The notes under the pieces: model-generated
What the model was told of the DNA's origin: nothing
The model's input: only the letters and a program-made list of their open reading frames with translations
The model's database searches: none
Shown: piece by piece, positions 29,833-64,000 of the stretch
How positions within the stretch are numbered: position 1 is the stretch's first letter
Layout of the letters: every line of letters starts with the position of its first letter
Position numbers and translations under genes: made by a program
Assembly (NCBI GenBank): GCA_043821285.1
Contig: JBDRCZ010000017.1
Coordinates: 15,947-79,946 of the forward strand
Length of the DNA stretch: 64,000 bases
Direction: 5' to 3'
DNA from: Candidatus Omnitrophota bacterium
GTDB taxonomy: Bacteria; Omnitrophota; Gorgyraeia; B26-G9; JBDRCZ01

Positions 29833-32820
29833 TTATATTGCTTGCTCTATAAATGTCAGGTTTTGGAATTGCGGTTTTGGAATTGCTGTTGTACTAGGGG
29901 GAAAATTAGGAAGTGGTGGATATCCAAAAAATTCTCTGGCAGTTGGATTTTGAATAGATTCAAAAGTAATCATACTTGGTGTCCCTCTATAAGTAGCTAT
30001 TTCTCCATTTAATTTTATTGTATTTTCATTATAATCATATGTAACAATTACCTGCAGTCTCTTACCTCTCTCTCCGCTTCTTGTGAGAACTAAGACGACA
30101 TTTAGTTCTGTAATTCTGCTTTGCATGGTATAAACTTGTATGCTTCCAATACTTTCAGGTATTTTAAGCTCTTTACTCCCAATTTTTTTACTCTCACTTA
30201 TAACTTCTTCTTCAATAATCTCTAAGCCTTCTGGCGCGTGAATTTCTCGTATCGCTTTCATCACTTCTTGCTTTAAATCTGGTGACAAATTTTGTACTAC
30301 TTCACTATTTTCTATAAATCTTATTTCCCTTGGATCAGTCCTCCGGCGTTCTTTGCCTTTTTTATCATCAAGTTCAAGAAATAGATATCCCCCGGTCGCG
30401 GAATTCCACGAAATCCTTGTTTGACCTTTATCATTGGCAGAAAAATTAATAGTAACATAGTTATTCGGACTGATTGTTAATATTGTTCCTTCACCAAATG
30501 ACGCGTGTTTCACCGTATCCCCTGCCCGCAATAGTGTTCCGTCAGGCAAAATAAGAGTAGGTCGAGCTAAGTTATTAATTACACTTCGTAACGCTATTTG
30601 TAGGTTTCCCTGGGAATTATTTTCAATATCAGGATAATTTTCAAAAAAGTCGTTTTGTGCCTTTTGTATTGCATTATAATGGCCTAATACTGAACAAATA
30701 GCTCCGTGATAGATGTATTCCTGGCGAATTAATGGATTATCCTGTTCACAAATTTGCCTTGATAACACTAAAGCCGGTTCAGGAAATAATTCGTTAAATT
30801 TCGCCTCACCTAAAATATTAATAATCTCTTGTTTTGTTTCTTCTGCATGTGAATAGAATTCAAGCACATAATCATCTTCTTGATTAAACACAACAGCATC
30901 AGTTACAATAATGCGTAATGGTATCTCACTTCCTGCAGTAGTATGCAAATACTTCCTTATTCTTTGTTCTATTTGTTCTATATCTTGCTTAAGATCATCA
31001 GTTTCATCGCGATACTGCCTATGGGAAAGATTATAGAGCATTTGTTTAAACGCACGGTCACCTTTGCGGATAAAGCCGCCTTCATTGTCTGTCGGATTAT
31101 TTTCTTTTGATCCTTCTCCTAATTCAGGAAGAAGGTGATATTGTTCAATTATTGCGGCTATTTCTTCAGGGTCATTTAGATTTCTGTTCCTAATTTTTTC
31201 ATAAACATCCGAATGCCAATTATCAATAGCATCACCTATAGCCTCATTTGACAACTCGCTACCTTGCGTTCGGGTAACTAAAAACATATACGATAATAAT
31301 GATAGTTTCATAGAATTTGGCAGAGTAGGTTCTTTGAGCATTTCTAATGGGGGTAACATACGGTTTTCTAAAACAGTTTTTACTTGTTCTGGAAAATCCT
31401 TCATAATAATAGGCCACAGCTTTAAAAAATTAACCAATGCTTCTTGATTTATTCTTTCAGGTGGAAACGCCTGGGAGTTTTTTTCAACTATTCTTTCTAT
31501 AAAATACAAAACTGCTCTGAGAGAGAAAATTTCTATGTTTGCATTTTGCGGAATTTCAACAGAAGAATTAACCCGTTCTCCATTAACAAGAATTATTGAT
31601 TTTTCAAAAGATAAGTCGTTTGCCTGGTATGTGGCTGAAATATAAGTAAGTAGTTCTGCTACAGTACTGCCTTTAGCAGGAATTCTAATTAATTCGTCAT
31701 TCCTACTGCCAATAAGTGAAGCAGAGATTCCTATTGTGTAAGGTAAAAGACAAACACTTATCCTTTCTTGATAAATTTGGCGTGTCTGTTTAGTTATAAT
31801 TATAGGTTTGCCAGCATTATCCCTTACTTCTACCCTACCCTCGTGTACGGCATGAAGAAGATTAAGAAAATCATCTGTGCTTTTAATTAAATTTTTATCT
31901 TTAGAAGCTAAATCATTCATAAGGCTAAGGGCATTAAGAAGATTTGCCCTATCATAAAGAGGAATCAAGCCTTCATTAATGCAGCGCTCGAGGTCTTCTG
32001 GTGTTTGAATAAATCTTGTATTAACATGAATCTCAAGTATCTTTTTAAGCGGGGCCCCGAGCGGTTCGTATTTACCAAAGATAAAGTTAAGCCCGCTTAT
32101 ATTATACATAGGAATATTCTTTGATATTCTAACTAAAGCATTACCGTATCCAATAAGACAGATTTTGGTCTCTTCAAAATCTTCTCTAGCGATTAAATCC
32201 TGAACCTGTATTAACCCCCTAAGCACCGCCTCTCTCCGAATATCTTGAATGTGTACTATTTCCTCGCGGATTTGCCGCATCGATCCTATCTTGCGCAAAA
32301 TTTGAGTTAATATTTTGGTATAAATTATAAAATGTAATAATTGGTCATCAGCTTCAACAATACCTTGTTTTTCCATTAAATACTGGATTAAAAATGCCCC
32401 ATGTTCAAACACATACTTGTCTTCATCAGAAACGCTATAAAATCTAACCAACCATTTATTAAGCGAACGCTTAAAAGACGATAAGGTATCAAAGCGTTGT
32501 ATAACATTTTTTGTTGCTAACAGGGCACTAAAGATAAGATTATGGATAATGTGACTAATGCCAGTTCTCTTGTTTTCTTGTAAAAGTTTATCAGCATCGA
32601 CTATTATTTTAGCTTCAGCAGATTCTTTTGCTAAAGTATCCGTTGCTTCGCCAGGATCACTAATATCTTTTGCAAAAATATCGCTATTTATGCTTAAGGG
32701 AGGGGCAAGATGGGTGTGTAGGCCTTTTAAATTGTTGCCGGCGGCCCAGGAGAGGTCGAGGCAGAAAAAAGCGTTAATTAGCATAATAACTGTTAGTTTA
32801 AACCAAATACTGCGTTTCAT
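29833..32820 (-). CDS. giant-family protein G1 (995 aa), function unknown
   Basis: N-terminus MKRSIWFKLTVIMLINAFFCLDLSWAAGNNLKGLHTHLAPPL; C-terminus ...NLTFIEQAI. Internal beta-grasp-like ILVNGERVNSSVEIPQNANIEIF and Tudor/UvrD-C-like AGDTVKHASFGEGTILTI. Confidence 0.8.
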   Translation of the reverse strand: MKRSIWFKLTVIMLINAFFCLDLSWAAGNNLKGLHTHLAPPLSINSDIFAKDISDPGEATDTLAKESAEAKIIVDADKLLQENKRTGISHIIHNLIFSALLATKNVIQRFDTLSSFKRSLNKWLVRFYSVSDEDKYVFEHGAFLIQYLMEKQGIVEADDQLLHFIIYTKILTQILRKIGSMRQIREEIVHIQDIRREAVLRGLIQVQDLIAREDFEETKICLIGYGNALVRISKNIPMYNISGLNFIFGKYEPLGAPLKKILEIHVNTRFIQTPEDLERCINEGLIPLYDRANLLNALSLMNDLASKDKNLIKSTDDFLNLLHAVHEGRVEVRDNAGKPIIITKQTRQIYQERISVCLLPYTIGISASLIGSRNDELIRIPAKGSTVAELLTYISATYQANDLSFEKSIILVNGERVNSSVEIPQNANIEIFSLRAVLYFIERIVEKNSQAFPPERINQEALVNFLKLWPIIMKDFPEQVKTVLENRMLPPLEMLKEPTLPNSMKLSLLSYMFLVTRTQGSELSNEAIGDAIDNWHSDVYEKIRNRNLNDPEEIAAIIEQYHLLPELGEGSKENNPTDNEGGFIRKGDRAFKQMLYNLSHRQYRDETDDLKQDIEQIEQRIRKYLHTTAGSEIPLRIIVTDAVVFNQEDDYVLEFYSHAEETKQEIINILGEAKFNELFPEPALVLSRQICEQDNPLIRQEYIYHGAICSVLGHYNAIQKAQNDFFENYPDIENNSQGNLQIALRSVINNLARPTLILPDGTLLRAGDTVKHASFGEGTILTISPNNYVTINFSANDKGQTRISWNSATGGYLFLELDDKKGKERRRTDPREIRFIENSEVVQNLSPDLKQEVMKAIREIHAPEGLEIIEEEVISESKKIGSKELKIPESIGSIQVYTMQSRITELNVVLVLTRSGERGKRLQVIVTYDYNENTIKLNGEIATYRGTPSMITFESIQNPTAREFFGYPPLPNFPPSTTAIPKPQFQNLTFIEQAI

Positions 32821-33140: not shown

Positions 33141-36100
33141 TTAGATTGCTTGCTCTGCTATAAATATATTAGGTACTGTTATTTCTCCGGCACTTGGTAT
33201 ATCTTCAAGTAATGTGTCCGGTGCAAATACATTTTCATTAGCAGGATTGGCTCTTGTGGCTATATCTTTAGCGTTTATAACACGTTGTGAGCGTCTGTCC
33301 TTATGAGCACTAGTGTCATTCGTTTCCTTTTGTAATTTTGCAAGAAGAACCGGATTATCTTTTATTTCACGGTGATTTTTGACGTTGGGAAAAAAACCTG
33401 TTGTCAGTTTTCTTGCGGCGGTTAAATCATCAACAGTTTGAATAATCATTCCTAATTCACCATTTAAATCTTCGCTATGAACAACACCAGCTTCTAATCT
33501 TACCTGCATGCCTAATTCTGAAATCACTTCATTAACTTTGATTTCGATCGCTTTCAAAGTAGCGGCAATTTTTTCCGAAGTAATTATCCCATCATCTTCT
33601 CTATAAGCTCCTGCAAATTGATTATAAACATTGTTATTAATTGATAGAATTACATCATTTCCAACATTGTGGCCAAATACATCATTAATAACCTTAAATC
33701 CAAAATGCAATTGTGCAAATTGTGCATCTCCATTTAAGTCTGTTTCTCTGTAAAACTCTCTGTTGCCGCTTGCTCTTATGAAATCATTTATATTTATGGA
33801 TGTAGAACTAACTATATAATGTGCTGATAGTTTTATCAGTTGTACACGGTTATTTTCTCTTTTTATAACGAGGTAGAACTTATCAGGCCGTTCATGTACA
33901 ATACTGATTGAAACAGCAGATTTGCCGTCTAAAATGTTTTGAATGGTTTTGCCCAACTTATCTCTTTCTATTACCGGGTAAAACTTGTCTAAATCTTCTT
34001 TCGAAATACCCGCATCTATCATTTCCTGACGTATTCTTTCTCCTTCAACTCCTAATTGAAATTTTTTATCGTCAGCTATTTTAATCGGTGATTTTCTCTC
34101 TTCGCGCTCAGGATCTGGGCGTTCGGATAATCCTATTCCTACTAACTTGTTGGCATATTTAGTCCTGCGCTGGGTGTATTCCGCCTCATCTCTAGCAATT
34201 CTTAGTTGTTCCAATAGACTCATTTGGGAAATATTAGGTATATCACTTATTTTTACTGCTCCTACCGGGGCAAAGGGAACATAAACAGGAAAATAAATCT
34301 TACCATTAATATCAATGTCAAGACATTTAAGATTAGCGAGTATCTCGGATAGAACAGTGTTTTCATCCTCTTCTACATCTTTAGTGAACAGTATAAATGT
34401 TTCCTTAGAAGCCTTTTCTTCTTCTGGCGTTAAAAATACTGATTTTGTGACCGTAGTAATGTTTCTTTTTTTATTTTCTCTTAATTTTTCTATCAACGCA
34501 TCTCTGTTACTATCATTTATATTTTTTAGGATTGCAAAAACGTATTTTCCTTCAATCCGTTCTATGACCTTGCGTTGAATTTGTACGAGAAAGTGCTCAA
34601 TAACTTCTTTTGGCAACATAGGTGGTAACAAACCAACAACCTCATCACCACTAACATGATAAACTGTTCTACCTCTTTCTTCAATTTCTTTACGAGCTGC
34701 CTCAATTAATGTGTTAATTGCAAGTATATTCACATTTTCCCAGCCATATACATCATTTCTACCCCTTAGTTCGCTGATGTCAAAGAATATCACCCAAGCA
34801 TTGTCGTCGTGTCTACCTAAAAATACCACTGCTTCTTTTTCCCATTTTTGTGCATTTTCTGGATAGGCTTCATTAAGAAAGTTTCTTACGCGTGTTGTAT
34901 TATCAAATAAAGTGGTTAAATACATTATAAACTCTTGCAGTTCGTTATAGGGTTCGTCAGTATCTTTTCTACTTAAAAGAACATCTATCACCTTAGTAGC
35001 CGCGTCCCTAAATTGCTGATCATTAATATTTTGGTTAATAATTTTTCTCCACTTCTCACCTAAACGCTTTATTTCAGCCTTCAGAAACATTTCTATTGCT
35101 TCCTCATCTTCGCCTTGTTCTTTACACCTATCTACTTCTAATATTACTTTTTCTACATCTGCGCCCAACTCAAAAGCAAAAAATTCCCCATCTCGTTCCT
35201 GACTGGAATTTTCTCTTGGCAAAATGCTTGCCATACCTAAGCTAAATGCTGCGATTAAACCTGCGGTTCCTCCTCCCATCCCTGATTGAAGCATTGATGC
35301 TGCGGAAAATTCTGGTTGAGATGGGAAATAACCAAGTGCTCGCATTAATGTTCCAATAGATGCTGCTAAAAGCACGATGGATATTTTAGGTTTATTTCCA
35401 AACCATGCAACTAACCTCCTAATTAGCGTACCTAACCTGTTCTCATGGGAAGGACTTTTGTTTAATGCCCTCCAACCAGTTGGATGCATAAATGCTACAT
35501 TAGTTGCTTTGCGTCTACGATGAAGAAGTCCGCTTATATTTGCAGGAAATATTATTTTTCTGCTTATCCACTTTTTTACCTCATAAGCAATATATATTAA
35601 TGTTAAAATTATGCCCAAACCAGGTATTACCATACAATCGCTAATAAAATTATTCCACTGTTTAACACGAGCATAACCTTCTCTTACAGTAAAACTATCA
35701 ATAAAAAACTCTTCTCCCATCGGTGGCATGATACCAAACTTAGCAATAAAATCTGCCTGGTTTTTAAATGCTTCTGTTGTTTCTGGATTGATATCAAAAA
35801 AAGGAATAACTAATCGAGCAATGTTAAAAATCAACGTTACTGGGTTATGTTTTATAAGAAATTCCATTGGGTTTTTAGGCAAATTATCGACATGATGACT
35901 TAAACGCACTAATGTAACAGCGTATTCAAAAATTCCTCGCTTAGTAAAGAAATTTAATCCAATATTAGGATTACCCCATGTTCCATTCCATCTTGAACCA
36001 TAGACAATATCAAAATTGCTTTCACGGATAGGTGGATTATTTGTCATAAGAATTTGGTAAGTTTCGGGAGAAACTAATTTTATCAAAAATAGCGCTGGTC

Positions 36101-39100
36101 CAATATGTTCTGCTCCTTCAGTTCCATCTCTTCGCTCAATAAAATCGTCCAACATGCCCGCAGCTTTATATTCATTGTAAAGTTTAATTACGGCTGTATC
36201 GATTTCCTGAGCTCTTTTTCGTGCTGTTGATTCTATAAATGATCCCGTGTTTTCATCAATTTTTGATGCAAGTGGAGAGTTTTGAAATGTTTCAATTAGA
36301 TTATGGAATTCATTTAAAGCTATTTGTAATTCTCCATTATTTTCTTGTAATGATACAGGTTGTGGTAATTCATTAAGTTTTAAACTGTCAGCTGGTGTTG
36401 GCTGTACTAATCCACTTTTTCCAACTGGTTCTAAAGATACAATGTTTAATGGTGCAGCAATTCCGATTGGTGCTAATATGGTCTGTGATCCGATAGCGAG
36501 GATAGTGAGTAAAGGCAATACTACCTTACGTGCAAAAGAGAAGTTAACACTGTGTTTAAAACCCCAGCCAAAAATAGCTAATCCTATCAGTCCTATTGCC
36601 GCAATTACAGCACCTGGCAAACCAAAAAATAACCCTGCAAACCCAATTGCCATAATTAACCCATCGATTGAAAGTGCTGTGGTTCCATTAGGTAACCTAC
36701 GGCTGGAATTATTATCCGGCGCAGTAATCTCTACATTATCTCCATGATTAAACGTCTGTTCTAAGTCTTCTACGCTTCTGGGCAAGCCGTTAACTTTTAA
36801 CACCAACTCCCCAGACTGGAGCATTTTTTGTGTGGTTAGGATGGCTTTGCGATTACGATCATTATAATAAGAAATCTGTGAAGTAATAGTCTTAATAAAT
36901 AAATATGCCAGCAGATCATAGATATTTGTTGCGGGAATCTGTTCTGCTGATATCAGTTCTCTAATACCATCTTGTTGACTATTACTGGCTTCTTTAGTTA
37001 TTGTTAATTGGATTAATGCTTTTTGTTCTTCTTCTTGCAATTTTTGAGTTTGCTGAGTTATTTCATCCTCTAAAAGAGCTAATCCAGCCCTATGCTGCTC
37101 TAAGATATCTTTTTCAGGATCAAATTCCCCTTCAGCACAAATTATTAACCCATTTGGCATAATATAGTAGACTATATTGAGATAGCCATGTGTGCTTTTG
37201 CCGATCATCAGTGAGTTTTTATTATTTAGCCAACCTTCGTACCTTTCCTTATGAAGCATAATTTGTTGGCTATGTGTATAATATCTTAACGTTGCATTAA
37301 TAAAACCTTGCGCATCGGCTTCCTCTTCTTTACGATAAGTAAGTGTTGTTCCATGCCCAATGAAACCATTTTTATAATGTTCAGGTAAGTTCTTCCATTC
37401 TTTGTTCAAACCACTTTCAATCCTTTGATGCAGTGATTTGTTTCCAGGAGCCGGTATGACACGTTCTGGCTCTGATGCTAATATCTCAAAGCTCGTGAAG
37501 GCATAAAAAATATTTTCTCTATCTGTCGCAATACCCATGCGTGTTTGACCCAAATTATCAGTTACTACCTGCCAGGTTGTTAATCCTATTTCTCGAGTAT
37601 ATGCAATTAGCGCCAGTTCGTATATTTCTTCTGTTAATAGTCCATCATTTACCATCCGCACAAAAAGCTTAAGAAATTCGTTGCTGTGATATATAAACCC
37701 GACCAATATTACTAAAGAAATTTTTCTTAATCTTTCTGTTGCGTTCTCTTCCTTTTTGAGTTTACAATAGATTGCTTCTATTGCAGTAACACAATCACTT
37801 TTGTATTCTGAGCCTATTGGATCGTCTTCTAACAAGATATTCCCTAATATCTGAACCGCGTATTCTGTTCCAATATCACCTAAAAGGTTTTTAACAGCCC
37901 TTAGGCGTAAGTAAAGCGGGTTAGTTTTATCATTCAACGCATTTGTCACAAGTTTTTCTGCAGGTTCACCAATTCCTCTTATAATCTCCTCACCAAGCAA
38001 AAGTAAGTTGGTTAAGTTCATATTAATTATATATCTATTTGGTTGTTGAATTAATGTTCTCATTCGCTTAATACAAGATTCAATCACATGTGCTCCCAAT
38101 ATCTCTTTCCTGCCAATTTCAACTAAATAGTCCTTTAAAAGTTCTTTTCTTATGTTAGCAAGCTCATAAGCTGAATGAAAAAATAAAATTATTAAACTAT
38201 CAGTTATTTTATCAACCATTTGTTTAATAATATTGTTTTGGTTTTCTGCTCTGGGATTTATTTTTAATGCATTGGCAATTTCAGTTATAAACTGTCTATC
38301 TCTATCTGATAATTCATCCTGTTGAATTCTATTGTATAAGACGAATAAATATCTTATAAAATAATTGAGTACCTCAATAACAGTTCTAAGAAAATCTAGT
38401 TCAGTTTCGTTAAATACTTCTTTTTTTTCAAATTTTTCCTGTGTCATTTGCTCAAATATTTCTTTTATCAATATAACCACTCGTATTTCATTACGTTCTT
38501 TAAGTATGTTAATAAGTAAACGTCTTATCCTCAGGTCAGAAGATTGAAGCACGTATTCTCTTATGTGGGGAAATGCCCGCTCGACAATATTACCTAACAC
38601 CGAAGAGGCAATTGTAACACGTGTTCCGCGATATATTAATCCCTGTTCACTTAATTCTGTAACAGCAGATTGAAGATTATCTTCTGATTTTTTTGCAATC
38701 TCCGTCAAAATATCAATAATCACATCTTGTTTTTTTTCTCCATGATCAAGCAGGTGCCGGATAGCTTTTACGCCAAACCCTTTAACCAAAATATCTTTAA
38801 TATCAGATGTTATTTCACGATCTTCACTATGAGCTGATAAGGCATCTGTTAAAAGGTCCATTGCCGTTGCAATTGTATCTTCATCTCTATTAGCAAATTC
38901 ACCAAGTTCAGCCATATTATCAGTACGTGAAGCGCGATCTCTATACGTAGCTAACTTATTAATCACATCCTGTATGTAAGCTCTCGTTGTACTATTATAA
39001 CTATTTCTATTGCTAAAATGCTTTGTTGTATCTTCTCCCGGATTGCCCCAATCTTGTAAACTAGAAAAAGGTAACTTTAATCCACCTATTCCGGCAAATG

Positions 39101-40421: not shown

Positions 40422-40446
40422 AAAAAATTGCCATAGGCAATTTTTT
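40422..40446 (-). terminator. terminator hairpin after G3
   Basis: Minus strand reads AAAAAATTGCC-TAT-GGCAATTTTTT then AGTTTACC. Overlaps the stop codon by 2 nt. Confidence 0.55.
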
Positions 40447-47854: not shown

Positions 47855-47879
47855 TAAAAAATTGCCGCAGCAATTTTTT
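47855..47879 (-). terminator. terminator hairpin after G4
   Basis: Minus strand reads AAAAAATTGC-TGCG-GCAATTTTTT then AGTTTACC. Confidence 0.55.
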
Positions 47880-55287: not shown

Positions 55288-55312
55288 AAAAATTGCCGAT
55301 GGCAATTTTTTT
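55288..55312 (-). terminator. terminator hairpin after G5
   Basis: Minus strand reads AAAAAAATTGCC-ATC-GGCAATTTTT then AGTTTACCGTTTAC. Confidence 0.55.
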
Positions 55313-58300
55313 AGATTGCCTGTTCCACGGCCAAAACCGTATTCAATCCTACTCCTTCAAGTAGCGGAAGTAAAGACATCAATTTCTGCATAGGCTTTTC
55401 ACCCTGCTGTCTGCAACCATCTGGAGTGTCTTTTCTTTCTCCATCTTCCATGAAACTCTGAGAAGCTAAATATCTCATTAGTTCTCCTGTTTGATTAGGA
55501 TTGGTTACTCTTACTATCGTAATATTTTCAACTTTAAGAACTAATCGATCATTACCTCCACTCCAAAATTCATCACCAATATATATGTCAGCTGCTGCAT
55601 CTATTACAGCCGCGGCTTTATCTTCTAAGTTTTCAGTATGTTCTTCTACAAAATCTCCCATTTTTTCATCATAGATGAATTTATGATACCCCGGTTCAGA
55701 GGATATGGTATAAAGAACAAGATTTTTTAATAAACCCTGCTTATCTTTCGGGATAGCAAATAATACCTGGCCTTTTACATTAAATATGTTTCCGCCAGTA
55801 ATTATTCTTAGCTTATATCCAACCTCAAGTAAGTTAAGGAATGCATCCAGATTATCTTCTCCGATTATTCCCCAGTAAGGAACAAGTGTGCCATCCATAT
55901 CTATTCCTATAACCTGAATTTCTTCTAACGGTACATGGCCATTTATAATATCATGGACATTTAATGGAGTATTTTGGGTTGTATCTACTGGGGATAGCGT
56001 GCCAAGTGTTTGTTTTGGGACAAAACTGTTTTCTTGCTCACGCTTTGCTATAAATTTACGGTGTGCAAGGACAATAAAGGTAGAAAGTGCAAGACCTTTA
56101 CCCTGCAATTCTTCTACTGTTTCACGGTTATCTTTAAGCTGCGGATCTAAATATGCCGCCAATAATTGCATAAGCAAAGGTTCATTAAGTAATAAATCTA
56201 CTCCCACGTTAACTTCTTGATAAAGTTTTTTTGCCTTTACATAGTCTGAAAAAAGTTCTCCTAATAACGAGGATTCATTGGTTAATTCCGCATACAAATT
56301 ATCGAATATTTCTTCTACAGATATTAATATATCATTGTACATTTCATCAGAAAGATGGCTTCTTAAAAATTCTTCTTGTTCTTGTACTTTCCACGGAGGT
56401 AGATATTTACTTCTCAAACCGTATTGATTTAAACATTGCTCTAACTTATAAAAGATTATTTGTTCAAGAACACTCTCATTATCAACTTTACTGATCAAAT
56501 TTTCTGGCAAGCGGTTTTTAATAAGATTTTTAAGCAGTGTACCAGTCGCCGATGTACTCAATCCGGTTCCATCAGCAAGTGAGTTTGGTGTCCATTCAAA
56601 AGGCAGCCATTCTGACACAACTATTCCGTGAAGATACTCTCTTCCAAAAGATATTCTTCCTCTTGTTCCTAAACCAAAAGTGTGAAGTTGAATGCCAAAT
56701 TGTTCGTTAAGCTTAGCATTTGTAACAGTGGAAGAGTCAGAATTTTTAAGAAGAGCAGCGAAATGTGCTTCAACCTCTGCTAATGAATCAAGCAAACACC
56801 TTGCTTTATGAAGAGTTACACCAGTTTCAACAATATCATCAATTATAAGAACGTTGCGGTGTTCTCTGAGATACTCGACGACCTTTGTATCATTTAGAAA
56901 TAACCGCAGGTCTTCAGGAGAATCTAAAGAGTATACATCTCTTTCAAAACCCAAACGCACCCTTTCAGCTTCTGTCAATAATGACCAAATTATTGTTGTT
57001 AAATTTAACTTTTGAGTAATAATCCAACTTTGGAATTCAGGTATTTCCTTATTAAATAAGTTATTCGCTTTTAACTGAGTAAGCAAAATTTCCAATGCTT
57101 TGGCAATTGGATCAGCTCCTTTTGAGGGAAAGATAACTAAATTTATATCGTGTTGGATTAAATATTTAACAATAGGAAGAAGTATAGGAGCAAATTGCAA
57201 AACTTGTATGTCTGTTCCTAAAGAATCTATGTCTCCAATTTCTTCACCTAATGCAGCTTCGACCGCCTGCCGAAGCTTTCCAGTATATCTGGAGCGATAA
57301 GGACTACGCAGATATCCTTCAATCGTTGGCAAGTTTTTTGCGATCTCCTTTTCAAGCTCTTCTTCAGCCCTCAAAAACATCTGATGCCCTGTTTCTGTCC
57401 TGAATAAAGTTTCACCCAGAAAATTGCCGTCATCTTTGCCTGATTTTTCATAAAGTCTATACTCTTCTTCAAGGCGCTCTTTATTAGTTTTAAATCTGGC
57501 TCGGATCTGTTCAGGTGTTATTTCTATTCCCGCAGCTTCTAAATCAGCAATAATCCCTTGATAAGTACACATAAATAATCTGTCTGCCTCACGCCATACT
57601 GTTATTAATCTATAAAAAGAAGAAGCATTAGCAAAAGGCCCTTCAAAATTAAACAAAAACTGTCCTTTTTCATATAAAGAAGTATCAACACCCATATTTC
57701 TAAGCTCTACTAAGGCCTGTTCAATAGAAGGATTATCATGAGCTTTTACCACACCACAGATTAAATTTACATTTACATCAGTTGCACTTAAAATACCGGT
57801 TGAAATTAATTGTTGGATTAATTCCCTAATCATTTCGGGGGCTTTTTTCATATGCGCAAGCCTAAACGCGATTGTGTTCTGCGCTAATTCTTTTGCCTTT
57901 AACGAATTTCTCTGTTCAATTTTCTTGCGTATTTGAATAATTCTTGCCCGTGAGCCTTCTAACTTGGCGTACCCAATATCATGTAATAAGGCTAATATTG
58001 CTGCGTTTTTAAATTCTTCATAGGTAAAATCTTCTCCTAATCCAATCTGCACCGCGTTCTCTAAGACTTGAGTATGATGATTTACAGGGTTGCCATTTGC
58101 TCCAGCTTTAAAATGAGGTAAGGCGCTCCAAAAAAGTGTGAAGAGAATATTTTGAATTTCTTGTTTTTGCTGGTCTGTAAATGTGCGGTCTTTTTCAATG
58201 CGGCTTAGTGCATTTTCCAAATTCTGAACTGCTAAACTTTTCTTACACTGAACAAGATAGTAGCCATTCTTTTCTTCAATTACTGCTTCTAATCCATTGT

Positions 58301-59036
58301 CTGTAAGAAATTGTTCAAATTCTGCTTTATTAGAAAAACTAAATCGACCACGTCCAGCGTTTATTGGTTCGGCAATCAATATTTCACCTTCTGAACTAAC
58401 TGCCCGAATATACTCCTTTAATAACTGATCACGTTCTTCACGATTACTAAACATGGTAAAGAACCGAATGCTGACCACTTTAGAAAAACTTCCGTCTTTA
58501 AACCGCATGTCCAAGGCACTGGCTTTTACCAAATCAACATTTTTGCTATCTTGCTTTCTATTTTGAGCAATGTTAAGTAAAATTTCATTGGTATCTAACC
58601 CTGTTATATGTTTGCAAAATTGAGAAATATAAAAAGTGAAATGTCCGGAACCACAACCTATTTCTAAAACTTCATCATCATTATCAATATTAGCTTCAAG
58701 CCAGTCTTTAGGGAAGTCTACAAGATAAGATGCAAGCGTACGATCATAAAAATAGGAAAAATATATCTTTTTGAGCCAATCAACGAGTCTTTCAGTCCAA
58801 GACCTGTGAGGAGAAATATCTCGTGTATCGTTAGGCAGCTTTAGCTGAGTTATATTTATTGTTTCTGCAACGTGTTCTTTAAGAATAGAATTATTTATTT
58901 GCAAAGGCGGAGCAAGGTGGGTGGACAAATTTTTTAAATTACCATTAGCAGCCCAGGAAATATCTAAGCATAAAAAGGCGTTAATTAATATAATCGCTGT
59001 TAGTTTGAATAATATATTTTTTTTAATGTTCAACAT
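55311..59036 (-). CDS. giant-family protein G5 (1241 aa): methyltransferase-HD-PRTase-HAD fusion
   Basis: N-terminus MLNIKKNILFKLTAIILINAFLCLDISWAANGNLKNLSTHLAPPL; C-terminus ...NTVLAVEQAI. GGAGA lies 8 nt upstream of the ATG. Confidence 0.85.
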   Translation of the reverse strand: MLNIKKNILFKLTAIILINAFLCLDISWAANGNLKNLSTHLAPPLQINNSILKEHVAETINITQLKLPNDTRDISPHRSWTERLVDWLKKIYFSYFYDRTLASYLVDFPKDWLEANIDNDDEVLEIGCGSGHFTFYISQFCKHITGLDTNEILLNIAQNRKQDSKNVDLVKASALDMRFKDGSFSKVVSIRFFTMFSNREERDQLLKEYIRAVSSEGEILIAEPINAGRGRFSFSNKAEFEQFLTDNGLEAVIEEKNGYYLVQCKKSLAVQNLENALSRIEKDRTFTDQQKQEIQNILFTLFWSALPHFKAGANGNPVNHHTQVLENAVQIGLGEDFTYEEFKNAAILALLHDIGYAKLEGSRARIIQIRKKIEQRNSLKAKELAQNTIAFRLAHMKKAPEMIRELIQQLISTGILSATDVNVNLICGVVKAHDNPSIEQALVELRNMGVDTSLYEKGQFLFNFEGPFANASSFYRLITVWREADRLFMCTYQGIIADLEAAGIEITPEQIRARFKTNKERLEEEYRLYEKSGKDDGNFLGETLFRTETGHQMFLRAEEELEKEIAKNLPTIEGYLRSPYRSRYTGKLRQAVEAALGEEIGDIDSLGTDIQVLQFAPILLPIVKYLIQHDINLVIFPSKGADPIAKALEILLTQLKANNLFNKEIPEFQSWIITQKLNLTTIIWSLLTEAERVRLGFERDVYSLDSPEDLRLFLNDTKVVEYLREHRNVLIIDDIVETGVTLHKARCLLDSLAEVEAHFAALLKNSDSSTVTNAKLNEQFGIQLHTFGLGTRGRISFGREYLHGIVVSEWLPFEWTPNSLADGTGLSTSATGTLLKNLIKNRLPENLISKVDNESVLEQIIFYKLEQCLNQYGLRSKYLPPWKVQEQEEFLRSHLSDEMYNDILISVEEIFDNLYAELTNESSLLGELFSDYVKAKKLYQEVNVGVDLLLNEPLLMQLLAAYLDPQLKDNRETVEELQGKGLALSTFIVLAHRKFIAKREQENSFVPKQTLGTLSPVDTTQNTPLNVHDIINGHVPLEEIQVIGIDMDGTLVPYWGIIGEDNLDAFLNLLEVGYKLRIITGGNIFNVKGQVLFAIPKDKQGLLKNLVLYTISSEPGYHKFIYDEKMGDFVEEHTENLEDKAAAVIDAAADIYIGDEFWSGGNDRLVLKVENITIVRVTNPNQTGELMRYLASQSFMEDGERKDTPDGCRQQGEKPMQKLMSLLPLLEGVGLNTVLAVEQAI
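55482..55919 (-). other. G5 HAD-superfamily phosphatase-like segment
   Basis: Motif I VIGIDMDGTL and motif IV-like IYIGDEFWSGGND. Confidence 0.6.
56637..57239 (-). other. G5 phosphoribosyltransferase-like segment
   Basis: PRPP-binding-type motif NVLIIDDIVETGVTL preceded by LVIFPSKGADPIA. Confidence 0.65.
57717..58094 (-). other. G5 HD-domain segment
   Basis: HHTQVLENAVQIG...AAILALLHDIGY. Confidence 0.6.
58242..58754 (-). other. G5 class I SAM-dependent methyltransferase segment
   Basis: VLEIGCGSGHFTFYIS (motif I), ITGLDTN, ALDMRFKDGSFSKVVS. Confidence 0.75.
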
Positions 59037-59560: not shown

Positions 59561-59589
59561 AGTATACCATATAATTACGCAATTTTCAA
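59561..59589 (-). promoter_or_regulatory. sigma70-like promoter for G5(-G4-G3)
   Basis: Minus strand reads TTGAAA, 17-nt spacer, TGG-TATACT. About 520 nt upstream of the G5 ATG. The flanks match the G2 promoter region. Confidence 0.6.
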
Positions 59590-59935: not shown

Positions 59936-59960
59936 AAAAAGTTGCCATAGGCAACTTTTT
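59936..59960 (-). terminator. terminator hairpin after G6
   Basis: Minus strand reads AAAAAGTTGCC-TAT-GGCAACTTTTT then GTTAACCGTTTACTGTTTACC. Confidence 0.55.
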
Positions 59961-62900
59961 AAATTGCCTGTTCTATAGCATACACCATATCTAATTCAAA
60001 CAAGTTAATCTCTGGCGCATCATCCGGTTGAGATACAATCATTAGAGCAGTGCTTGGTTTTATAGGAGGATTATTTTGATCTAACTCATCTGGGTCATTG
60101 CGGAAAGACCCATATTCATCTTCGCTCCAGGGATAACAATATATTGAAGTTCCCCCATCCTTTTTTTTCTCAAGAAGACCGTATTCTGATAATCGATTAA
60201 GAACTGTCCTTACCCTGTCTGTGCCCATATATCTATAATTGCGGAATTCATCTCTCAATACCTCAGCAACCTCTGATGCTTTAAACTCCCTACCGTTAGC
60301 AAAATTCGCCCAGACTGTACGAAGTATAACTTTTTCATTACCGGGCTGATTGTTCTCCTGTAGTGTAATATTGTCCCAGTAAGATAAATATGATTGGTCA
60401 AATTCCTCTTTTGACAAATCCCGCAATTCCCGTTTATGTTCTTGGTCAATTGCTGCCATCTCACGATATACAATGCATTTGTTTAAGTGTGCGAGTGACA
60501 GCAATAACGGCACATTTTTTATCTGCCCCTTGTTTATTCTTTGCGTTTCTGATATTCTTAAAATCTGTTTATAATATTCTATTGTTTTGTCATAACACGA
60601 TAGTGCTTTTATATATTCTTCTTTATCATTTTGCTCAAAACCATTTTCCGCATATTCAGCGCCTTCTTCAGCATACCATGCAGCTGCTTCTGTAAAAATA
60701 TCTACTGCACCAGCAAAATATTTTTCCTTAATATATTTACTAGCTAACGCTTTATAAACATTAGCGGACATTGGCATACTGCTATCTGGATAAAATTGTT
60801 TTCCTGTTGACTGGTTACTAGTTCTCGTGTGTGATGGTATTATCATTCTTGCAGGTGTGCTACTTTGGGGAGAAACTCCATTATATGTTGTATCAAAACC
60901 CCTAGTATATGCGAATTGCCATTTTTGTGGTATGATATTTCGTAATACCTCCGCGATAAAGGCAGGTGGGGTTAAAATCCAATTTGCTACCTTGATTAAG
61001 GCTTCAGAATATCTTTTACCTTCTAATTTATCCTCCATCCATTTTAGTACTGTAGCGCGCTGCCAGAAGCCAAGATATTCTCCAAAGAAATAGAAAAATA
61101 CTACTGCTGCCCATCCTCCCACACCCGCCAGGTCAAAAGGTATAATTAAACGGCCCGCACCTCTATTTCTGAGTCTATCTTGTATAACAAAATGCGGCAG
61201 TGGGACATTAAACCTTAATATCTGCCTTTCTCTACTTAATATTAAATCAGCATTGCCTAAATTTGCTTTACCGATAACTTCATCTATAATACTCCTCACA
61301 ATCACTTTTTCTCGATTATTACACCCGCGGTAAATCGCTCTAAAATATTCTCTTAGTAGAGAACGGATCATTATAAGCTGAACATTGTCTTGTCTTATGT
61401 ATACTTCAGCAGCTGAACGTACTGCTATTTCAAGTGCTTCTTGTTTGTGCGCTGGCAATATTCTGTATGTCTGATTAGCCACTGTGCCCCTATCTTGTGT
61501 GACATAAGGGGCTATCACTTTAAAAAGTACATGCCGTGCATCTGCTTGAGAAAGATATACTAATCCTTTTAATGTGTCATCCATGACCGCTTTAGTTAAC
61601 GGGTGTTGTCCTGGATTTTGAATAGAACTGTAAATTCTAGCGATAATTTCTATATTAATTCTCTCTATAGGTGTAGAATCTATTTTAAATTCATAGCTTC
61701 CTACATCGTCTTTTCTAACGGTCTGCACAATTTCATTTACTTTTTGAATAATCTCTTGTCTTTCATCTTTTAAAAGGCCTATATCTTCTCTTGATAAAAA
61801 GCTTGCTAAAAACTCCAGTTCTAATGCTTGCTGAAGAGCATTTTCTGGAGAAAAATTATTAATCCCTTGTTTAAGAGCATCCATCATGGAAACTTCTAAG
61901 TTTATACCAGGGCGATAAGTGTGTAAAAAAAACCTTTTGATATTGATAAATTCTGGCAAAAGAATAACCTCTTTAGTGTCTAAATTTATAGTCTCATTTA
62001 TAGTTTCTTCTAATATAGAGCTAAACGGGCGAAGAAGTACTAATCTTTCATAAAGAGTCTCATCTGAATGAAAAAATGTTAAATAGATCACAAGTCTTAA
62101 ATAATAATCCGCCAGAAAAACACCATCTACAGTAAACTCTATGTTACCATCTTTATCTCTACGGCTTACAGTTAAACATTTGTACAAAAAATTATCTATC
62201 TCTGTAAGCATCCGATATAAGATTTCCATCGCGGTTTCTGTATTCTGTTCTAAGGCAAGCTCAAGAACATTAGTGACATTTGAGAAATCTTGCAAAACAA
62301 CATATTCTTTAAGAACACCCCATAGACTATCAAACAACTCATGGTCTTCACGATGATAAGCAAATGCAGCCAGGCCAACAAATGACGCTAAGTTTGCTTT
62401 TAAATTTAAACCGGTATTTATCAAATAGCTTATTTCCTTTTCTATATAAATGAGTATAATTTTAGAAACATCACCTCCGGCAATAAAGGTATAAACAATC
62501 ACTGCAAAAAGGGCGTCGTGTAATTCCTCATCTTCCGGAGATATATTTAATCGTTGAAGTATTTCAGCCAACACTGCTATTACCATATCAATTTCTTCGA
62601 TATTATCTTGTATATGCACGCGCATTTTATTAATAAAAAATACCAAAACATGGCGAAGTTCATTTTTTAGATGACTGTCCAATTTTTCCCAGTCTCCTTC
62701 TTCCGTTTCTGTTAAACTTTGTATTTCAGCTTGGACACGGTCTAATTCTTCATTCAACGAGTTTATTCTTTCTGTATTTGAAGGGGCCGGACTTCTCTGT
62801 CTCTGTCTTTGTCTCTGCCGCCTTGAGCTTCTTGGTTCTGACCTACGCTGTAAGTTTTGTATTTCCCGGGTAATCTCTTGCTCTCGCCCTTTCAGCGCCG

Positions 62901-64000
62901 TTAGTTCTTTTCTGCTGGCAATAATATGCTCTAATAAATTGCTTATATCTGTTTGTAATCGGTCATCTGCTGGTCTAACGACCGATGGTTGCTTATCTTC
63001 AGCAGTTGGTTGTTCTGTAGGAATTAATGCTATTGATACTTTTATCGGGTCATCAAACGGCCAATCAATACTTTGGCTTAGCATTCTCTGAAACTCCACA
63101 AATAATTCTTTACTGTTTTTTTGCCCATTAACCTGCTCTGCAAAAATTTCAAACATATCTTCTCTGGTAAGACTACCTTCAATTAACGGTCTAATATCGG
63201 CTGTAGATTCTACAAGAATCATACTAACCGAGCGCAGTGAATTTTCGATTGTATCAGCCTTAATAACCCTATCTTCTTTATCTTGCAAATATTCTCTGAT
63301 TAAATATTGCAGTGCTTCTCGGTTAACACTAAGGGTTGAGCTGGCAAAATACATTACTATCTCTAAATAGTACATCCGCATCTCTTGCTTTCTTGCCCCG
63401 GCAATTTTTTTGATAATTTCTTCAAAATAATCTTTATCCTCCTCAAGTTTATCTTGCCAGAGATTTGCTAACTGGTAAAGAGCCGTCCTTCTTGTATTTT
63501 CATCTCTACTTTCTCTTAGTTTTCTGATAAGCTGTGCTTCGCGCTGTGTAGCAAGATTTTGATAGATTTCATCTATTTCAAACAATATCTCCAATTTTTC
63601 TCTTAATTTTATTCTTTCATTACCCAAACGGCCATCATCCGTGCCTTGGAGAACTAAATTCCCTAATATCTCAATGGCACATCTCTTGCGCATCTTATTA
63701 AGCGGTGTGAAGTTATTAAAGGATGCTTCTATTAATACTAAACCCATTCTTTCTAAAGAAGCGCCTTGAGCAAAAAGGGTTCTAAAATATAGACCGATAT
63801 TATAGTGGTCCGGCGGCAGTTCTGTAAACATCTCTATTTCAGAACGGTCAACAATCTCTTGAAACAATATTTCGATTAAGATAGTTAGCAATCTGTAACG
63901 TCTATTTTCAACCCCAGTAAGATAGAGTACTAAACTATTAGTAAACTCCGCTAGACCAATTATTACTTCTTCTGGTAATTCGGCTGTTTTCAGTTCGGGT
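59959..64000 (-). CDS. giant-family protein G6 (>=1346 aa, N-terminus off window)
   Basis: The reading frame stays open from 63891 to the window edge (...PELKTAELPEEVIIGLAEFTNSLVLYLTGVENRRYR-LLTILIE...). C-terminus ...DMVYAIEQAI. The middle is paralogous to G3. A TM stretch and a winged-helix-like segment lie near the C-terminus. Confidence 0.8.
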   Translation of the reverse strand, partial: PELKTAELPEEVIIGLAEFTNSLVLYLTGVENRRYRLLTILIEILFQEIVDRSEIEMFTELPPDHYNIGLYFRTLFAQGASLERMGLVLIEASFNNFTPLNKMRKRCAIEILGNLVLQGTDDGRLGNERIKLREKLEILFEIDEIYQNLATQREAQLIRKLRESRDENTRRTALYQLANLWQDKLEEDKDYFEEIIKKIAGARKQEMRMYYLEIVMYFASSTLSVNREALQYLIREYLQDKEDRVIKADTIENSLRSVSMILVESTADIRPLIEGSLTREDMFEIFAEQVNGQKNSKELFVEFQRMLSQSIDWPFDDPIKVSIALIPTEQPTAEDKQPSVVRPADDRLQTDISNLLEHIIASRKELTALKGREQEITREIQNLQRRSEPRSSRRQRQRQRQRSPAPSNTERINSLNEELDRVQAEIQSLTETEEGDWEKLDSHLKNELRHVLVFFINKMRVHIQDNIEEIDMVIAVLAEILQRLNISPEDEELHDALFAVIVYTFIAGGDVSKIILIYIEKEISYLINTGLNLKANLASFVGLAAFAYHREDHELFDSLWGVLKEYVVLQDFSNVTNVLELALEQNTETAMEILYRMLTEIDNFLYKCLTVSRRDKDGNIEFTVDGVFLADYYLRLVIYLTFFHSDETLYERLVLLRPFSSILEETINETINLDTKEVILLPEFINIKRFFLHTYRPGINLEVSMMDALKQGINNFSPENALQQALELEFLASFLSREDIGLLKDERQEIIQKVNEIVQTVRKDDVGSYEFKIDSTPIERINIEIIARIYSSIQNPGQHPLTKAVMDDTLKGLVYLSQADARHVLFKVIAPYVTQDRGTVANQTYRILPAHKQEALEIAVRSAAEVYIRQDNVQLIMIRSLLREYFRAIYRGCNNREKVIVRSIIDEVIGKANLGNADLILSRERQILRFNVPLPHFVIQDRLRNRGAGRLIIPFDLAGVGGWAAVVFFYFFGEYLGFWQRATVLKWMEDKLEGKRYSEALIKVANWILTPPAFIAEVLRNIIPQKWQFAYTRGFDTTYNGVSPQSSTPARMIIPSHTRTSNQSTGKQFYPDSSMPMSANVYKALASKYIKEKYFAGAVDIFTEAAAWYAEEGAEYAENGFEQNDKEEYIKALSCYDKTIEYYKQILRISETQRINKGQIKNVPLLLSLAHLNKCIVYREMAAIDQEHKRELRDLSKEEFDQSYLSYWDNITLQENNQPGNEKVILRTVWANFANGREFKASEVAEVLRDEFRNYRYMGTDRVRTVLNRLSEYGLLEKKKDGGTSIYCYPWSEDEYGSFRNDPDELDQNNPPIKPSTALMIVSQPDDAPEINLFELDMVYAIEQAI

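Follow-up and report, generated by a model that had tools for sequence, protein, structure and literature searches.

A fixed N-terminal signal and a short C-terminal tail pair as candidate sorting signals on a family of Omnitrophota proteins with variable bodies

Results

Six large genes in tandem

Six neighbouring large ORFs, G1 to G6, form a co-oriented tandem array on the minus strand of the window, the whole 64-kb stretch of DNA analysed here. Each carries an N-terminal module (N-module) and a C-terminal tail:

G1, 29833..32820, (-), 995 aa; N-module, soluble body, tail ...LTFIEQAI
G2, 33141..39581, (-), 2146 aa; N-module, several internal hydrophobic clusters, tail ...IFIAEQAI
G3, 40445..47536, (-), 2363 aa; N-module, TM cluster at about residues 681-812, tail ...LFEIERAI
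G4, 47878..53553, (-), 1891 aa; N-module, two TM segments (611-673), tail ...MLAVEQAI
G5, 55311..59036, (-), 1241 aa; N-module, internal TM absent, tail ...VLAVEQAI
G6, 59959..64000 (runs off the window), (-), C-terminal 1346 aa of a 3205-aa protein; tail ...VYAIEQAI

The full-length database record of G6 (P0071; 3205 aa, ABH952_01605) begins MNNLTRTIWFRLIAIILVNAFFCMDISWAAGGNLKGLTTHLAPP. The N-module is therefore present in 6/6 genes, and all six ORFs have both ends, as had been proposed from the window sequence.

Curated Pfam-A and NCBIfam thresholds were passed in the window only by transketolase (TPP) and SAM-methyltransferase domains. G4 contains one complete transketolase and a second, partial transketolase-like unit, and G5 the SAM methyltransferase (residues 108-236). 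PRTase and HAD matches in G5, a GGDEF-like stretch in G2 and a ThiS-like beta-grasp match in G1 were sub-threshold. G1 otherwise matched no family, and its predicted structure had a mean pLDDT of 34. TPR/SNAP-like and winged-helix matches were obtained in the in-window part of G6. Thus, of the TPP, SAM, PRPP and GTP cofactor folds originally predicted, the first two stand, while the PRPP and GTP assignments correspond to matches below threshold. The bodies had also been described as unrelated or only partly related. They are variable and enzyme-rich; G3 and G6, however, are paralogues over several regions, among them one of ~590 aa.

The N-terminal module

The five N-modules encoded within the window are:

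G1, 32695..32820, (-), codons 1-42: basic n-region, 13-aa h-region, c-region DLSWA, then AGNNLKGLHTHLAPPL
G2, 39447..39581, (-), codons 1-45
G3, 47402..47536, (-), codons 1-45
G4, 53419..53553, (-), codons 1-45
G5, 58902..59036, (-), codons 1-45

These N-termini do align, with 23 invariant columns among the first 42 residues. In a six-frame translation of the whole window, L[DN][IL]SWA occurred exclusively at the five N-termini.

Sec/signal peptidase I signals consist of a basic n-region, a hydrophobic h-region of 7-15 residues and a polar c-region, with small residues at -3 and -1. Rule-based inspection of 67 members gave the N-module this form: net charge of the n-region averaged +2.7 (minimum +1), the median h-region was 13 aa, position -3 was A, S, C or T in 64/67 members and position -1 was A in 62/67. 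The c-region consensus is D-I-[AS]-W-A and the predicted mature N-terminus begins A/G-G. A conserved L-[AS]-P-x-hydrophobic-x-I box lies 10-20 residues past the predicted cut, and polar N/Q and D residues are conserved inside the hydrophobic core or on its border. Profile search located the module at residue 1 only, with 0 internal copies. By its sequence, the N-module is a canonical Sec/signal peptidase I signal with predicted cleavage and unusually little variation. The two termini had been presented as uncatalogued; for the N-module this holds in part, since its kind is catalogued and its fixed sequence and L-[AS]-P box are what is unusual.

Other N-terminal signals were considered and rejected. 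A lipobox is [LVI][ASTVI][GAS]C with an invariant Cys; here L or F precedes Cys, and many members have L, I, M or another residue in place of the Cys. Tat signals carry a twin-arginine motif, S/T-R-R-x-F-L-K, and these N-termini have no RR motif. In prepilin (class III) signals a short basic leader ends with G at -1, and the hydrophobic stretch lies past the cut with E at +5; in the N-module it sits before the small-x-small site, and E at +5 is absent. Double-glycine (C39 peptidase) leaders combine conserved hydrophobic positions with a GG whose register is fixed at -2/-1. Many members lack GG (WAANG, WADGE, WAKGG), and where present its register relative to L-D-I-x-W moves between WAAGG and WAGG. 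Finally, isolated N-termini gave 0 matches to ESPR (PF13018) or YSIRK (PF04650), even at E<=10.

The C-terminal tail

Each gene ends in a tail of eight codons followed by TAA:

G1, 29833..29859, (-), last 8 codons + TAA
G2, 33141..33167, (-), last 8 codons + TAA; no hairpin after
G3, 40445..40471, (-), last 8 codons + TAA
G4, 47878..47904, (-), last 8 codons + TAA
G5, 55311..55337, (-), last 8 codons + TAA
G6, 59959..59985, (-), last 8 codons + TAA

Six-frame translation of the 64-kb window confirmed that this end is shared by all six genes: there are exactly 6 instances of E[QR]AI directly before a stop, at the ends of G1-G6, and only 2 of E[QR]AI elsewhere. Among 49 members, the last residue was I in 48, position -2 was A or S in all 49 and position -5 was I or V in 43; E at -4 (26/49) and Q or R at -3 (35/49) were less constant. 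The motif, L-x-[LFA]-[IV]-E-[QR]-[AS]-I, stands at a free C-terminus and conservation is confined to the last ~8 residues. The stretch before it is non-conserved, and proline-rich in G1, G4 and G6.

Described C-terminal signals did not account for the tail. In LPXTG- and PEP-CTERM-type signals, a TM helix and a basic cluster come after the C-terminal motif. The ...E-Q-A-I ends have neither helix nor basic tail, and gave 0 NCBIfam matches to LPXTG, PEP-CTERM, GlyGly-CTERM or other sortase, exosortase or rhombosortase signals. The T9SS C-terminal domain is a beta-sandwich of ~80 aa (TIGR04183), against ~8 conserved residues and 0 NCBIfam matches here, and an OMP beta-signal ends in F, Y or W after alternating hydrophobics, against a terminal, non-aromatic I in 48/49 members. 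RTX substrates of T1SS lack a Sec signal and have GGxGxD repeats and a C-terminal signal; the tagged proteins have a Sec-type signal, and RTX repeat families were absent among 41 members. Motif inspection and NCBIfam thus agree with the original prediction that the ends are not a lipobox, Tat, LPXTG, PEP-CTERM or T9SS CTD signal. PDZ-binding motifs have a hydrophobic last residue and a free carboxylate. The tail resembles such ligands in its terminal Ile (48/49), always at the true C-terminus; no PDZ partner was found.

The two ends are coupled across a large family

A profile search with the N-module over 1.84 billion proteins returned 67 cluster representatives. An [AS]-I end was present on 39 of the 48 N-module proteins of at least 450 aa, against a background of ~1%, and on 3/221 other ORFs of the same loci. 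These counts bear out the proposal that the ends are a genuine pair of tags, coupled to each other, on bodies that vary and are rich in enzymes. Neither end was meaningfully matched in Pfam-A or NCBIfam r20, even when the isolated termini were searched at E<=10, so that the idea survives comparison with known signal and domain families.

The source MAG encodes at least 29 members on ~15 contigs, with a summed length of ~36,650 aa. Member lengths range from 152 to 6278 aa. The ORFs were first described as giant, but size does not define the family: some members measure 152-290 aa. Scanning 185,579 species genomes with a DNA pattern gave 15 matches, all of them family members; 13 were labelled Omnitrophota and 2 'Planctomycetia', and all are Omnitrophota-type MAGs. 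Most members are at present annotated 'hypothetical protein'.

Bodies of 41 members comprised HEAT/TPR repeats, glycolytic and nucleotide-metabolism enzymes, PPDK, methyltransferases and TM clusters. Cytosolic-type enzymes among them include transketolase, SAM methyltransferase, PGK, NDK and PPDK. In 13/44 tail-bearing members (~30%; G1 and G5 included), the signal is the sole hydrophobic segment. Heuristic TM counts were even in 29 members and odd in 15, a weak bias that does not fix the compartment of the tail.

Gene neighbourhood

In related genomes the tagged genes often stand in tandem arrays. PilZ genes lie downstream of arrays in four related loci (L002, L006, L009 and L010), and an MFS_2 transporter with a GH2-like gene lies downstream in others (L001, L003/L026, L016, L018 and L019). 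None of these adjoins the G1-G6 array in the 64-kb window. No ABC/MFP/TolC genes were found beside arrays in the window or the 28 loci, and no S41, HtrA or Clp genes were linked to arrays in the window and related loci. As had been noted, cognate machinery is absent from the window: the array surroundings within these 64 kb contain no identified receptor, protease, transporter or secretion component for the tag pair. Giant Omnitrophota genes have PilZ and carbohydrate-uptake genes downstream and a T2SS/T4P-like locus upstream (bioRxiv 10.1101/2023.11.21.568195).

Discussion

A candidate sorting-signal pair

The reading we favour, with slightly less than even confidence, is that two sorting signals together define a lineage-specific family of exported Omnitrophota proteins, to which G1-G6 belong. 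From the tagged ends we infer a dedicated route of export, anchoring or docking. Cleavage by signal peptidase I would fall after W-A and leave A/G-G... at the new N-terminus, with the L-[AS]-P box 10-20 residues on. The tail would act as a short linear motif recognised, through its last residue and free carboxylate, by a cognate receptor, for which a PDZ-like domain, a TPR-like domain or a component of the T2SS/type IV-pilus-like loci near giant genes are candidates. Such a receptor may route, retain or process the full-length protein during or after export. Because the signal occupies the extreme end, the tail could double as a completeness check on very long products. The bodies between the tags are interchangeable, and match the giant 'Archaeovorins' in repertoire.

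It is difficult to see why cofactor-dependent, cytosolic-type bodies would be exported across the cytoplasmic membrane, unless their site of action is an energised surface or the interior of prey or host cells. A bolder proposal, which we regard as possible yet rather doubtful, is a new sorting or secretion pathway in which a fixed Sec signal and a free-carboxylate [IV]-E-[QR]-[AS]-I deliver ATP-, TPP-, SAM- and PEP-dependent enzymes out of the cytoplasm, either onto the cell surface or into a prey or host cell. 'Giant protein' function would then be spread over ~30 tagged modules, which might re-assemble head-to-tail via the tags.

Alternative readings of the ends

The tail could instead be a C-terminal degron or processing tag for Prc/CtpA (S41), HtrA PDZ or cytoplasmic ClpXP, and set turnover or maturation, not destination. 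The MuA degron ends ...KKAI. The free C-terminus that the motif requires, the small residue before the terminal Ile, the non-conserved and in several members proline-rich stretch ahead of the tail, and the restriction of the tail to complete translation products are all consistent with this. A constitutive degron on ~30 very large paralogues would however be wasteful, strict coupling to one signal peptide better fits a shared route than generic proteolysis, and the protease genes named are not linked to arrays in the window and related loci. We consider this reading improbable.

One-step export of T1SS type is a less likely explanation still. The tail would be a C-terminal T1SS-type signal, and the N-module an envelope retention anchor as in LapA-like giant adhesins, not a Sec signal. 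Cytosolic-type domains would then need no Sec passage, and the tail does place an acidic residue plus three residues, the last hydrophobic, at the extreme C-terminus. C39-peptidase-like domains are typical of T1SS ABC exporters, and the PilZ genes adjoining some arrays offer a c-di-GMP link. Giant Omnitrophota proteins have such C39-like domains near their N-termini (bioRxiv 10.1101/2023.11.21.568195). Yet the N-module follows all Sec/signal peptidase I rules, -3/-1 included, in a fixed register; the 41 members have 0 RTX or calcium-binding repeats; the internal TM clusters of many members would be hard to thread through a T1SS; and the arrays in the window and the 28 loci lack adjoining ABC/MFP/TolC genes.

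We give a similarly low probability to head-to-tail docking, whereby the exposed L-[AS]-P-x-hydrophobic-x-I box binds, or is ligated to, the C-tail of another member. Modules encoded by separate genes would in this way build a giant surface complex, the counterpart of the one-piece giant polypeptides in sister lineages. In favour, each end is a short conserved peptide beside non-conserved sequence, the members lie in tandem, co-oriented arrays, the predicted mature N-terminus starts A/G-G, and the summed member length in the MAG falls within the size range of giant Omnitrophota proteins. Against this, no fused tail-plus-box junction was detected inside larger members, no co-variation links a gene's tail to the following gene's box in the window, no ligase or sortase-like gene was seen, and the genes, G2 excepted, are terminated separately by their own hairpins.

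Nor is the N-module likely to be an uncleaved membrane anchor, which would make the proteins inner-membrane enzyme scaffolds and the tail a docking peptide in whatever compartment it occupies. The conserved polar residues in or at the edge of the core are unusual for a disposable signal, many members have additional TM clusters, and long Omnitrophota proteins surveyed by DeepTMHMM have mostly membrane-anchored architectures (bioRxiv 10.64898/2026.06.07.730766). But a 13-residue core is too short to anchor stably, and a textbook A/S-W-A cleavage site comes after it. Moreover, if the N-terminus stayed inside, G1 and G5 would still have their enzyme bodies outside the cytoplasm.

In the N-module, pS was 0.5-0.8 against a pN of 0.05-0.23 for most pairs, with synonymous sites near saturation, and tail codons differ among genes (GAG/GAA, CAA/CAG/CGG, ATA/ATC/ATT), using all three Ile, both Glu and both Gln codons. 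What is under purifying selection is therefore the protein rather than some DNA or RNA element, and recent duplication does not explain the ends. The view that they are non-functional remnants of duplication or gene conversion, or by-products of a nucleotide element such as a stop-overlapping terminator hairpin, is already refuted and has virtually no chance of being right: G2 and G3 5' ends are 89% identical over 175 nt (35 nt upstream included) and G3-G6 share a hairpin beginning at the stop codon, whose 3' arm resembles the GCAAT of the Ala-Ile codons, but this hairpin differs at G1 and is absent at G2, and both ends persist in distant genomes. Absence of the motifs from related genomes, originally named as a refuting finding, is likewise contradicted by their conservation in other Omnitrophota genomes and metagenomes.

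Significance

Omnitrophota are widespread, uncultured and probably predatory or parasitic, and their large and giant proteins are among their least understood features, not least in topology, in destination and in the glycolytic and nucleotide-metabolism enzymes that apparently exported ones contain. The tag pair looks like an undescribed address label for the large and giant proteins of the phylum. It defines the family by sequence, independently of the variable bodies, and can be used for annotation because most members now lack a name. The pair also provides a handle on the cognate machinery via phylogenetic profiling, and consists of two short, directly testable peptides. Should the tail prove to direct export or surface sorting, diderm bacteria would gain a new, minimal type of C-terminal signal.

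Comparison with known systems

In Gram-positive surface proteins, a conserved YSIRK-G/S signal peptide is coupled to a C-terminal LPXTG sorting motif around variable bodies. The tagged family shares the fixed signal, the C-terminal motif, the highly variable, often very large bodies and the expansion into paralogues within a genome. Unlike these, it gives 0 Pfam matches, and its tail stands at the extreme C-terminus with no TM segment or basic stop-transfer. We know of no sortase for an ...EQAI-type tail. ESPR (PF13018) is an N-terminal extension ahead of a normal signal in very large autotransporters and TPS proteins, and likewise ties a conserved signal-peptide sequence specifically to very large exported proteins. 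In the N-module, by contrast, the n, h and c regions themselves are conserved, with 0 Pfam matches, and no C-terminal beta-barrel is present.

T9SS cargo and PEP-CTERM-type proteins follow the same two-ended logic, in which Sec serves the inner membrane and a signal at the C-terminus the second step; the tail differs in being ~8 residues long with a free Ile end, and NCBIfam sorting-signal models gave 0 matches. Envelope PDZ ligands include the OMP YxF-COOH recognised by DegS, Prc/Tsp substrates and those of the PDZ domain of T2SS GspC. They too are short motifs in which a hydrophobic last residue and a free carboxylate must occupy the chain end; the tail ends in Ile, not an aromatic residue, and the likeness is one of sequence, no PDZ protein having been found. 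Metalloprotease/HasA-class T1SS signals and LapA-like adhesins resemble the family in the acidic-plus-three-residue end at the extreme C-terminus and in giant substrates with constant ends. T1SS substrates have no Sec signals or TM clusters and usually carry RTX repeats, whereas the tagged proteins have Sec-type signals and TM clusters, and 0 RTX repeats.

The closest known counterparts within the phylum are the Omnitrophota giants of 10,000-147,000 aa, the 'Archaeovorins' of West-Roberts et al. (bioRxiv 10.1101/2023.11.21.568195). Shared with them are HEAT/TPR repeats, PGI and other glycolytic enzymes, PPDK, GGDEF-like stretches, methyltransferases, TM clusters and signal peptides, as well as, in related tagged loci, small PilZ or sugar-transport/glycosidase genes downstream. 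The tagged proteins fall below the Archaeovorin length criterion of >~10,000 aa (ORFs >20-30 kb), and are encoded in tandem arrays of separately terminated genes. The N-module and C-tail are unmentioned in the Omnitrophota giant-protein preprints (bioRxiv 10.1101/2023.11.21.568195; 10.64898/2026.06.07.730766). Given the body repertoire in common, and the downstream neighbours in common at related loci, we would best place the family at the small-to-large end of the Archaeovorin class, with the tag pair as its probable unifying feature.

Six tandem ORFs share both ends

The right half of the window is occupied by six large, co-oriented ORFs, G1 to G6.

29833-32820, minus strand: G1, 995 aa
33141-39581, minus strand: G2, 2146 aa
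40445-47536, minus strand: G3, 2363 aa
47878-53553, minus strand: G4, 1891 aa
55311-59036, minus strand: G5, 1241 aa
59959 to beyond 64000, minus strand: G6, 3205 aa in the full database record; reading frame uninterrupted up to the window edge

In an alignment of the N-termini of G1-G5, 23 columns are invariant over the first 42 residues. The same signal-peptide-like start (hereafter N-module) opens the full-length G6 record, P0071. When the entire 64 kb was translated in six frames, E[QR]AI followed by a stop codon occurred six times, each time as the end of one of G1-G6, and the word LD[IL]SWA was found solely at the five visible N-termini. The original prediction of a common N-module and of a common C-terminal end (C-tail) on all six ORFs was thus borne out.

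The left half of the window carries ordinary chromosomal genes (ThiC, GuaA, DnaE, HisS, AroB, M50 peptidase, MscS, HNOB protein and a PilZ-T2SS-E ATPase fusion). The last of these, a T2SS-E/PilB-type ATPase with an N-terminal PilZ domain (11321-12718, plus strand), is located 17 kb away from the array; the window contains no other secretion-type gene. The source contig is 86 kb long, from a MAG labelled 'Candidatus Omnitrophota bacterium' (locus tags ABH952_). A DDE_5 transposase ORF (53922-54986, plus strand) interrupts the array between G4 and G5. Other mobile elements, IS200/Y1 transposase genes, are present near the array end (27148-27954, minus strand) and adjoin family members at loci L004 (3605-4294) and L010 (3229-3867) in two other genomes. 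Rfam gave no match within the array, and a PDB sequence search with G1 and G2 returned zero matches. An AlphaFold2 model of G1, built with no alignment, had a mean pLDDT of 34 and was not usable as a structure.

Anatomy of the two ends

The N-module comprises a basic n-region (mean net charge +2.7), an h-region with a median of 13 residues and a c-region reading D-I-[AS]-W-A. At the predicted cleavage site, 64/67 family members have a small residue at position -3 and 62/67 have Ala at -1, which matches a textbook signal peptidase I site in fixed register. Two features are unusual for a signal peptide: L-I-[NQ]-[AS]-F and L-D, both near-invariant, lie inside the core or at its edge, and the predicted cut is followed, 10-20 residues on, by a conserved L-[AS]-P-x-hydrophobic-x-I box.

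The C-tail consensus, derived from 49 members, is L(-8)-x-[LFA](-6)-[IV](-5)-E(-4)-[QR](-3)-[AS](-2)-I(-1)-COOH. The stretch ahead of it is non-conserved, and is proline-rich in G1, G4 and G6. In G1, G5 and some 30% of the members with a C-tail, the signal is the sole hydrophobic segment; should it function as its sequence suggests, the whole enzyme bodies and tails of these proteins would be exported from the cytoplasm. Internal TM segments, counted by heuristic hydropathy, are biased towards even numbers, too weakly to assign the C-tail to a compartment.

The family extends beyond the window

Searching 1.84 billion cluster representatives with an N-module profile identified 67 proteins of 67 to 6278 aa at E<=1e-3, 23 of these at E<=1e-10. 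Since the match starts within the first 11 residues in 66/67, the N-module sits at the N-terminus; the exception, P0024, is N-terminally truncated, with its ORF start inside the module. The N-module was never found at internal positions. At least 29 members belong to the window's own MAG, on about 15 contigs, totalling ~36,650 aa (our sum of the listed member lengths). The two ends are coupled: 39/48 members of at least 450 aa end in [AS]-I, the exceptions being mostly short, partial or split ORFs, compared with 3/221 other six-frame ORFs of the same loci.

Across 185,579 species genomes, a hand-made degenerate DNA pattern encoding F-L-x-L-D-x-[AS]-W-A-[AG]-G retrieved 15 loci, each of them a true member, from MAGs labelled Omnitrophota (13) or 'Planctomycetia' (2). 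The pattern found 12 further loci in metagenomes; an ORF matched the N-module profile in nine, of which eight are apparently true members and the ninth, L022, has another tail (see below), and L020, L024 and L028 were discarded as chance matches. Tandem arrays are recurrent, with five members at locus L019 for example, and upstream partial ORFs in array loci likewise end in QAI, QSI or NAI. Some members are as small as 152-290 aa and consist of little beyond both ends plus a hydrophobic segment or two.

Several variants were observed. Locus L022 (168-10339 of the GC-rich metagenome contig ORMF010354784.1) encodes a tandem pair of large ORFs (1474 and 1913 aa) with a similar signal peptide, the 1913-aa one matching the N-module profile. 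They end in LAVGA and LAAGA, not QAI, possibly a separate version of the tail that belongs to another lineage. At L016, a 49-aa ORF of N-module alone (1005-1154) precedes a 236-aa ORF with the C-tail (1290-2000); the pair resembles a single member that has been split or frameshifted. Pseudogenes or assembly errors of this kind may also account for several short members without a tail in the window's MAG (e.g., P0007, P0009, P0014, P0015 and P0020). Finally, the C-tail accompanies a more divergent signal peptide at L008 (2939-7825, ending LVGQSI; MKFHIISILLIQALLSGSSVYAEVC) and L013 (2508-3536, ending FIDQAI; MKNFKKITGLLLMQAFFLIGLLSCQ), so that the C-tail may be somewhat wider spread than the canonical N-module.

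Constraint acts on the protein

For most pairs of N-modules, pS was 0.5-0.8, near saturation, and pN 0.05-0.23; the G2/G3 pair was closer (pS 0.27). C-tail codons vary as well: Glu is encoded by GAG and GAA, Gln by CAA and CAG, Arg by CGG (G3) and Ile by all three codons. Synonymous near-saturation with low pN, together with varied tail codons, indicates selection on the protein and not on the nucleic acid. The pS and pN values and the conservation of both ends across genomes rule out duplication or gene-conversion remnants, one of the outcomes that would have undone the original prediction.

In G3-G6 the stop codon opens a conserved 12-bp A/U-rich hairpin (40422-40447, 47855-47880, 55288-55313 and 59936-59961), UAAAAAAUUGCC-loop-GGCAAUUUUUUA, the first bases of which are the TAA stop. 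The G6 copy carries a compensatory change (AGUUGCC/GGCAACU). G1 has a hairpin of the same design and different sequence (29809-29835), and G2 has none. These hairpins are probably terminators overlapping the stop codon, which suggests that each large gene is apparently its own transcription unit. One hairpin arm resembles Ala-Ile codons, raising an RNA or DNA element as the origin of the C-tail. The synonymous codon variation, the different G1 hairpin, the lack of any hairpin at G2 and minimum-energy folds in which the terminator stem forms with no pairing to C-tail codons refute this explanation.

The array spacers are made of short repeated words, namely GTTTACC(G)TTTAC, CAGAAA(A/T)CAGAA heptamers and ATACTCAATAC, located at 33004-33137, 39780-39935, 47746-47802, 53700-53756 and 59329-59511 and also directly after the hairpins. 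G2 and G5 are each preceded by a long leader (39582-40444 and 59037-59958, respectively), and the two leaders are homologous. These words and leaders may be regulatory sites.

Bodies, and neighbours at related loci, resemble those of giant Omnitrophota genes

The bodies had been described as unrelated or only partly related, carrying cofactor-dependent enzyme folds. They are indeed diverse, with G3 and G6 paralogous over several regions. Solely the transketolase units of G4 (TPP) and the SAM methyltransferase of G5 scored above curated thresholds in the array; the PRTase, HAD, GGDEF-like and ThiS-like matches fell below. Across 41 full-length members, body domains included PPDK, PGK, PGI, NDK, guanylate kinase, NUDIX, GDPD, ACT, HD_4, M50 peptidase, AAA_11/12 helicase, DUF218, HEAT repeats and several methyltransferases. 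The giant Omnitrophota 'Archaeovorin' proteins are described as having this same repertoire (bioRxiv 10.1101/2023.11.21.568195).

Giant Omnitrophota genes are reported to have pilZ or sugar-transporter/glycosidase-type genes downstream (bioRxiv 10.1101/2023.11.21.568195). Related loci of the present family have the same downstream neighbours: some carry small PilZ genes, others a sugar transporter (MFS_2) with a GH2-like secreted protein. The PilZ-domain genes (~120 aa) lie immediately 3' of members at L002 (275-640), L006 (4770-5135), L009 (3325-3684) and L010 (2749-3108). The second arrangement runs MFS_2 transporter, secreted GH2_C/GH72-like protein and a 205-aa ORF of no known family (L001 3432-7486, L003/L026, L016 4641-8732, L018 63-3542 and L019 12257-14139). 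In the window, no PilZ gene lies directly downstream of the array; an HNOB (haem-NO-binding) gene (28969-29508) comes after G1.

A candidate pair of sorting signals

The best-supported reading, which we favour tentatively, is that the ends form a lineage-specific pair of sorting signals. Sec and signal peptidase I would act on the N-module. The short C-tail, needing a free C-terminus, would then be read by a receptor for routing, retention or processing, and could double as a completeness check on very long products. The sequence data establish the tag pair, its coupling, selection, distribution and signal-peptide anatomy, and a genomic context in common with giant genes; the dedicated route originally suggested is an inference, as are cleavage of the signal, the compartment and reader of the C-tail and the destination of the proteins.

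Other roles for the same ends appear less probable. The C-tail could be a degron or processing tag, which we regard as unlikely. We give slightly less credence to each of three others: that the hydrophobic core of the N-module, with its predicted cleavage site, serves as an uncleaved anchor; that the tail drives one-step, T1SS-like export; and that modules of the tandem arrays dock head to tail through their ends.

Comparison with known signals

Whole proteins and isolated termini were compared with Pfam-A and NCBIfam r20 (E<=10), and neither end gave a meaningful match. The few matches listed were unrelated, far under curated cut-offs and different from terminus to terminus, so that these databases place neither end in a described family, as originally proposed. 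The N-module and C-tail receive no mention in two preprints on Omnitrophota giant proteins (bioRxiv 10.1101/2023.11.21.568195; 10.64898/2026.06.07.730766) or in the Nature Microbiology survey, and no paper connecting a sorting signal to Omnitrophota emerged from a literature search.

Lipobox, Tat, prepilin and double-glycine leader readings of the N-module were ruled out on sequence, register or conservation, and a LapG di-alanine site on register or conservation. The C-tail lacks the defining features of LPXTG/PEP-CTERM-type signals, of the T9SS C-terminal domain and of the OMP beta-signal, and RTX-type T1SS substrates do not fit either, with no RTX repeat family among 41 members.

Analogues can be found at the level of logic. 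YSIRK with LPXTG, and a Sec signal with the T9SS C-terminal domain, parallel the tag pair; ESPR-type conserved signal peptides of very large exported proteins parallel the N-module; PDZ-ligand C-termini and the extreme C-terminal motifs of some T1SS substrates parallel the C-tail. As analogies, these five systems are the closest in logic to the tag pair described here.
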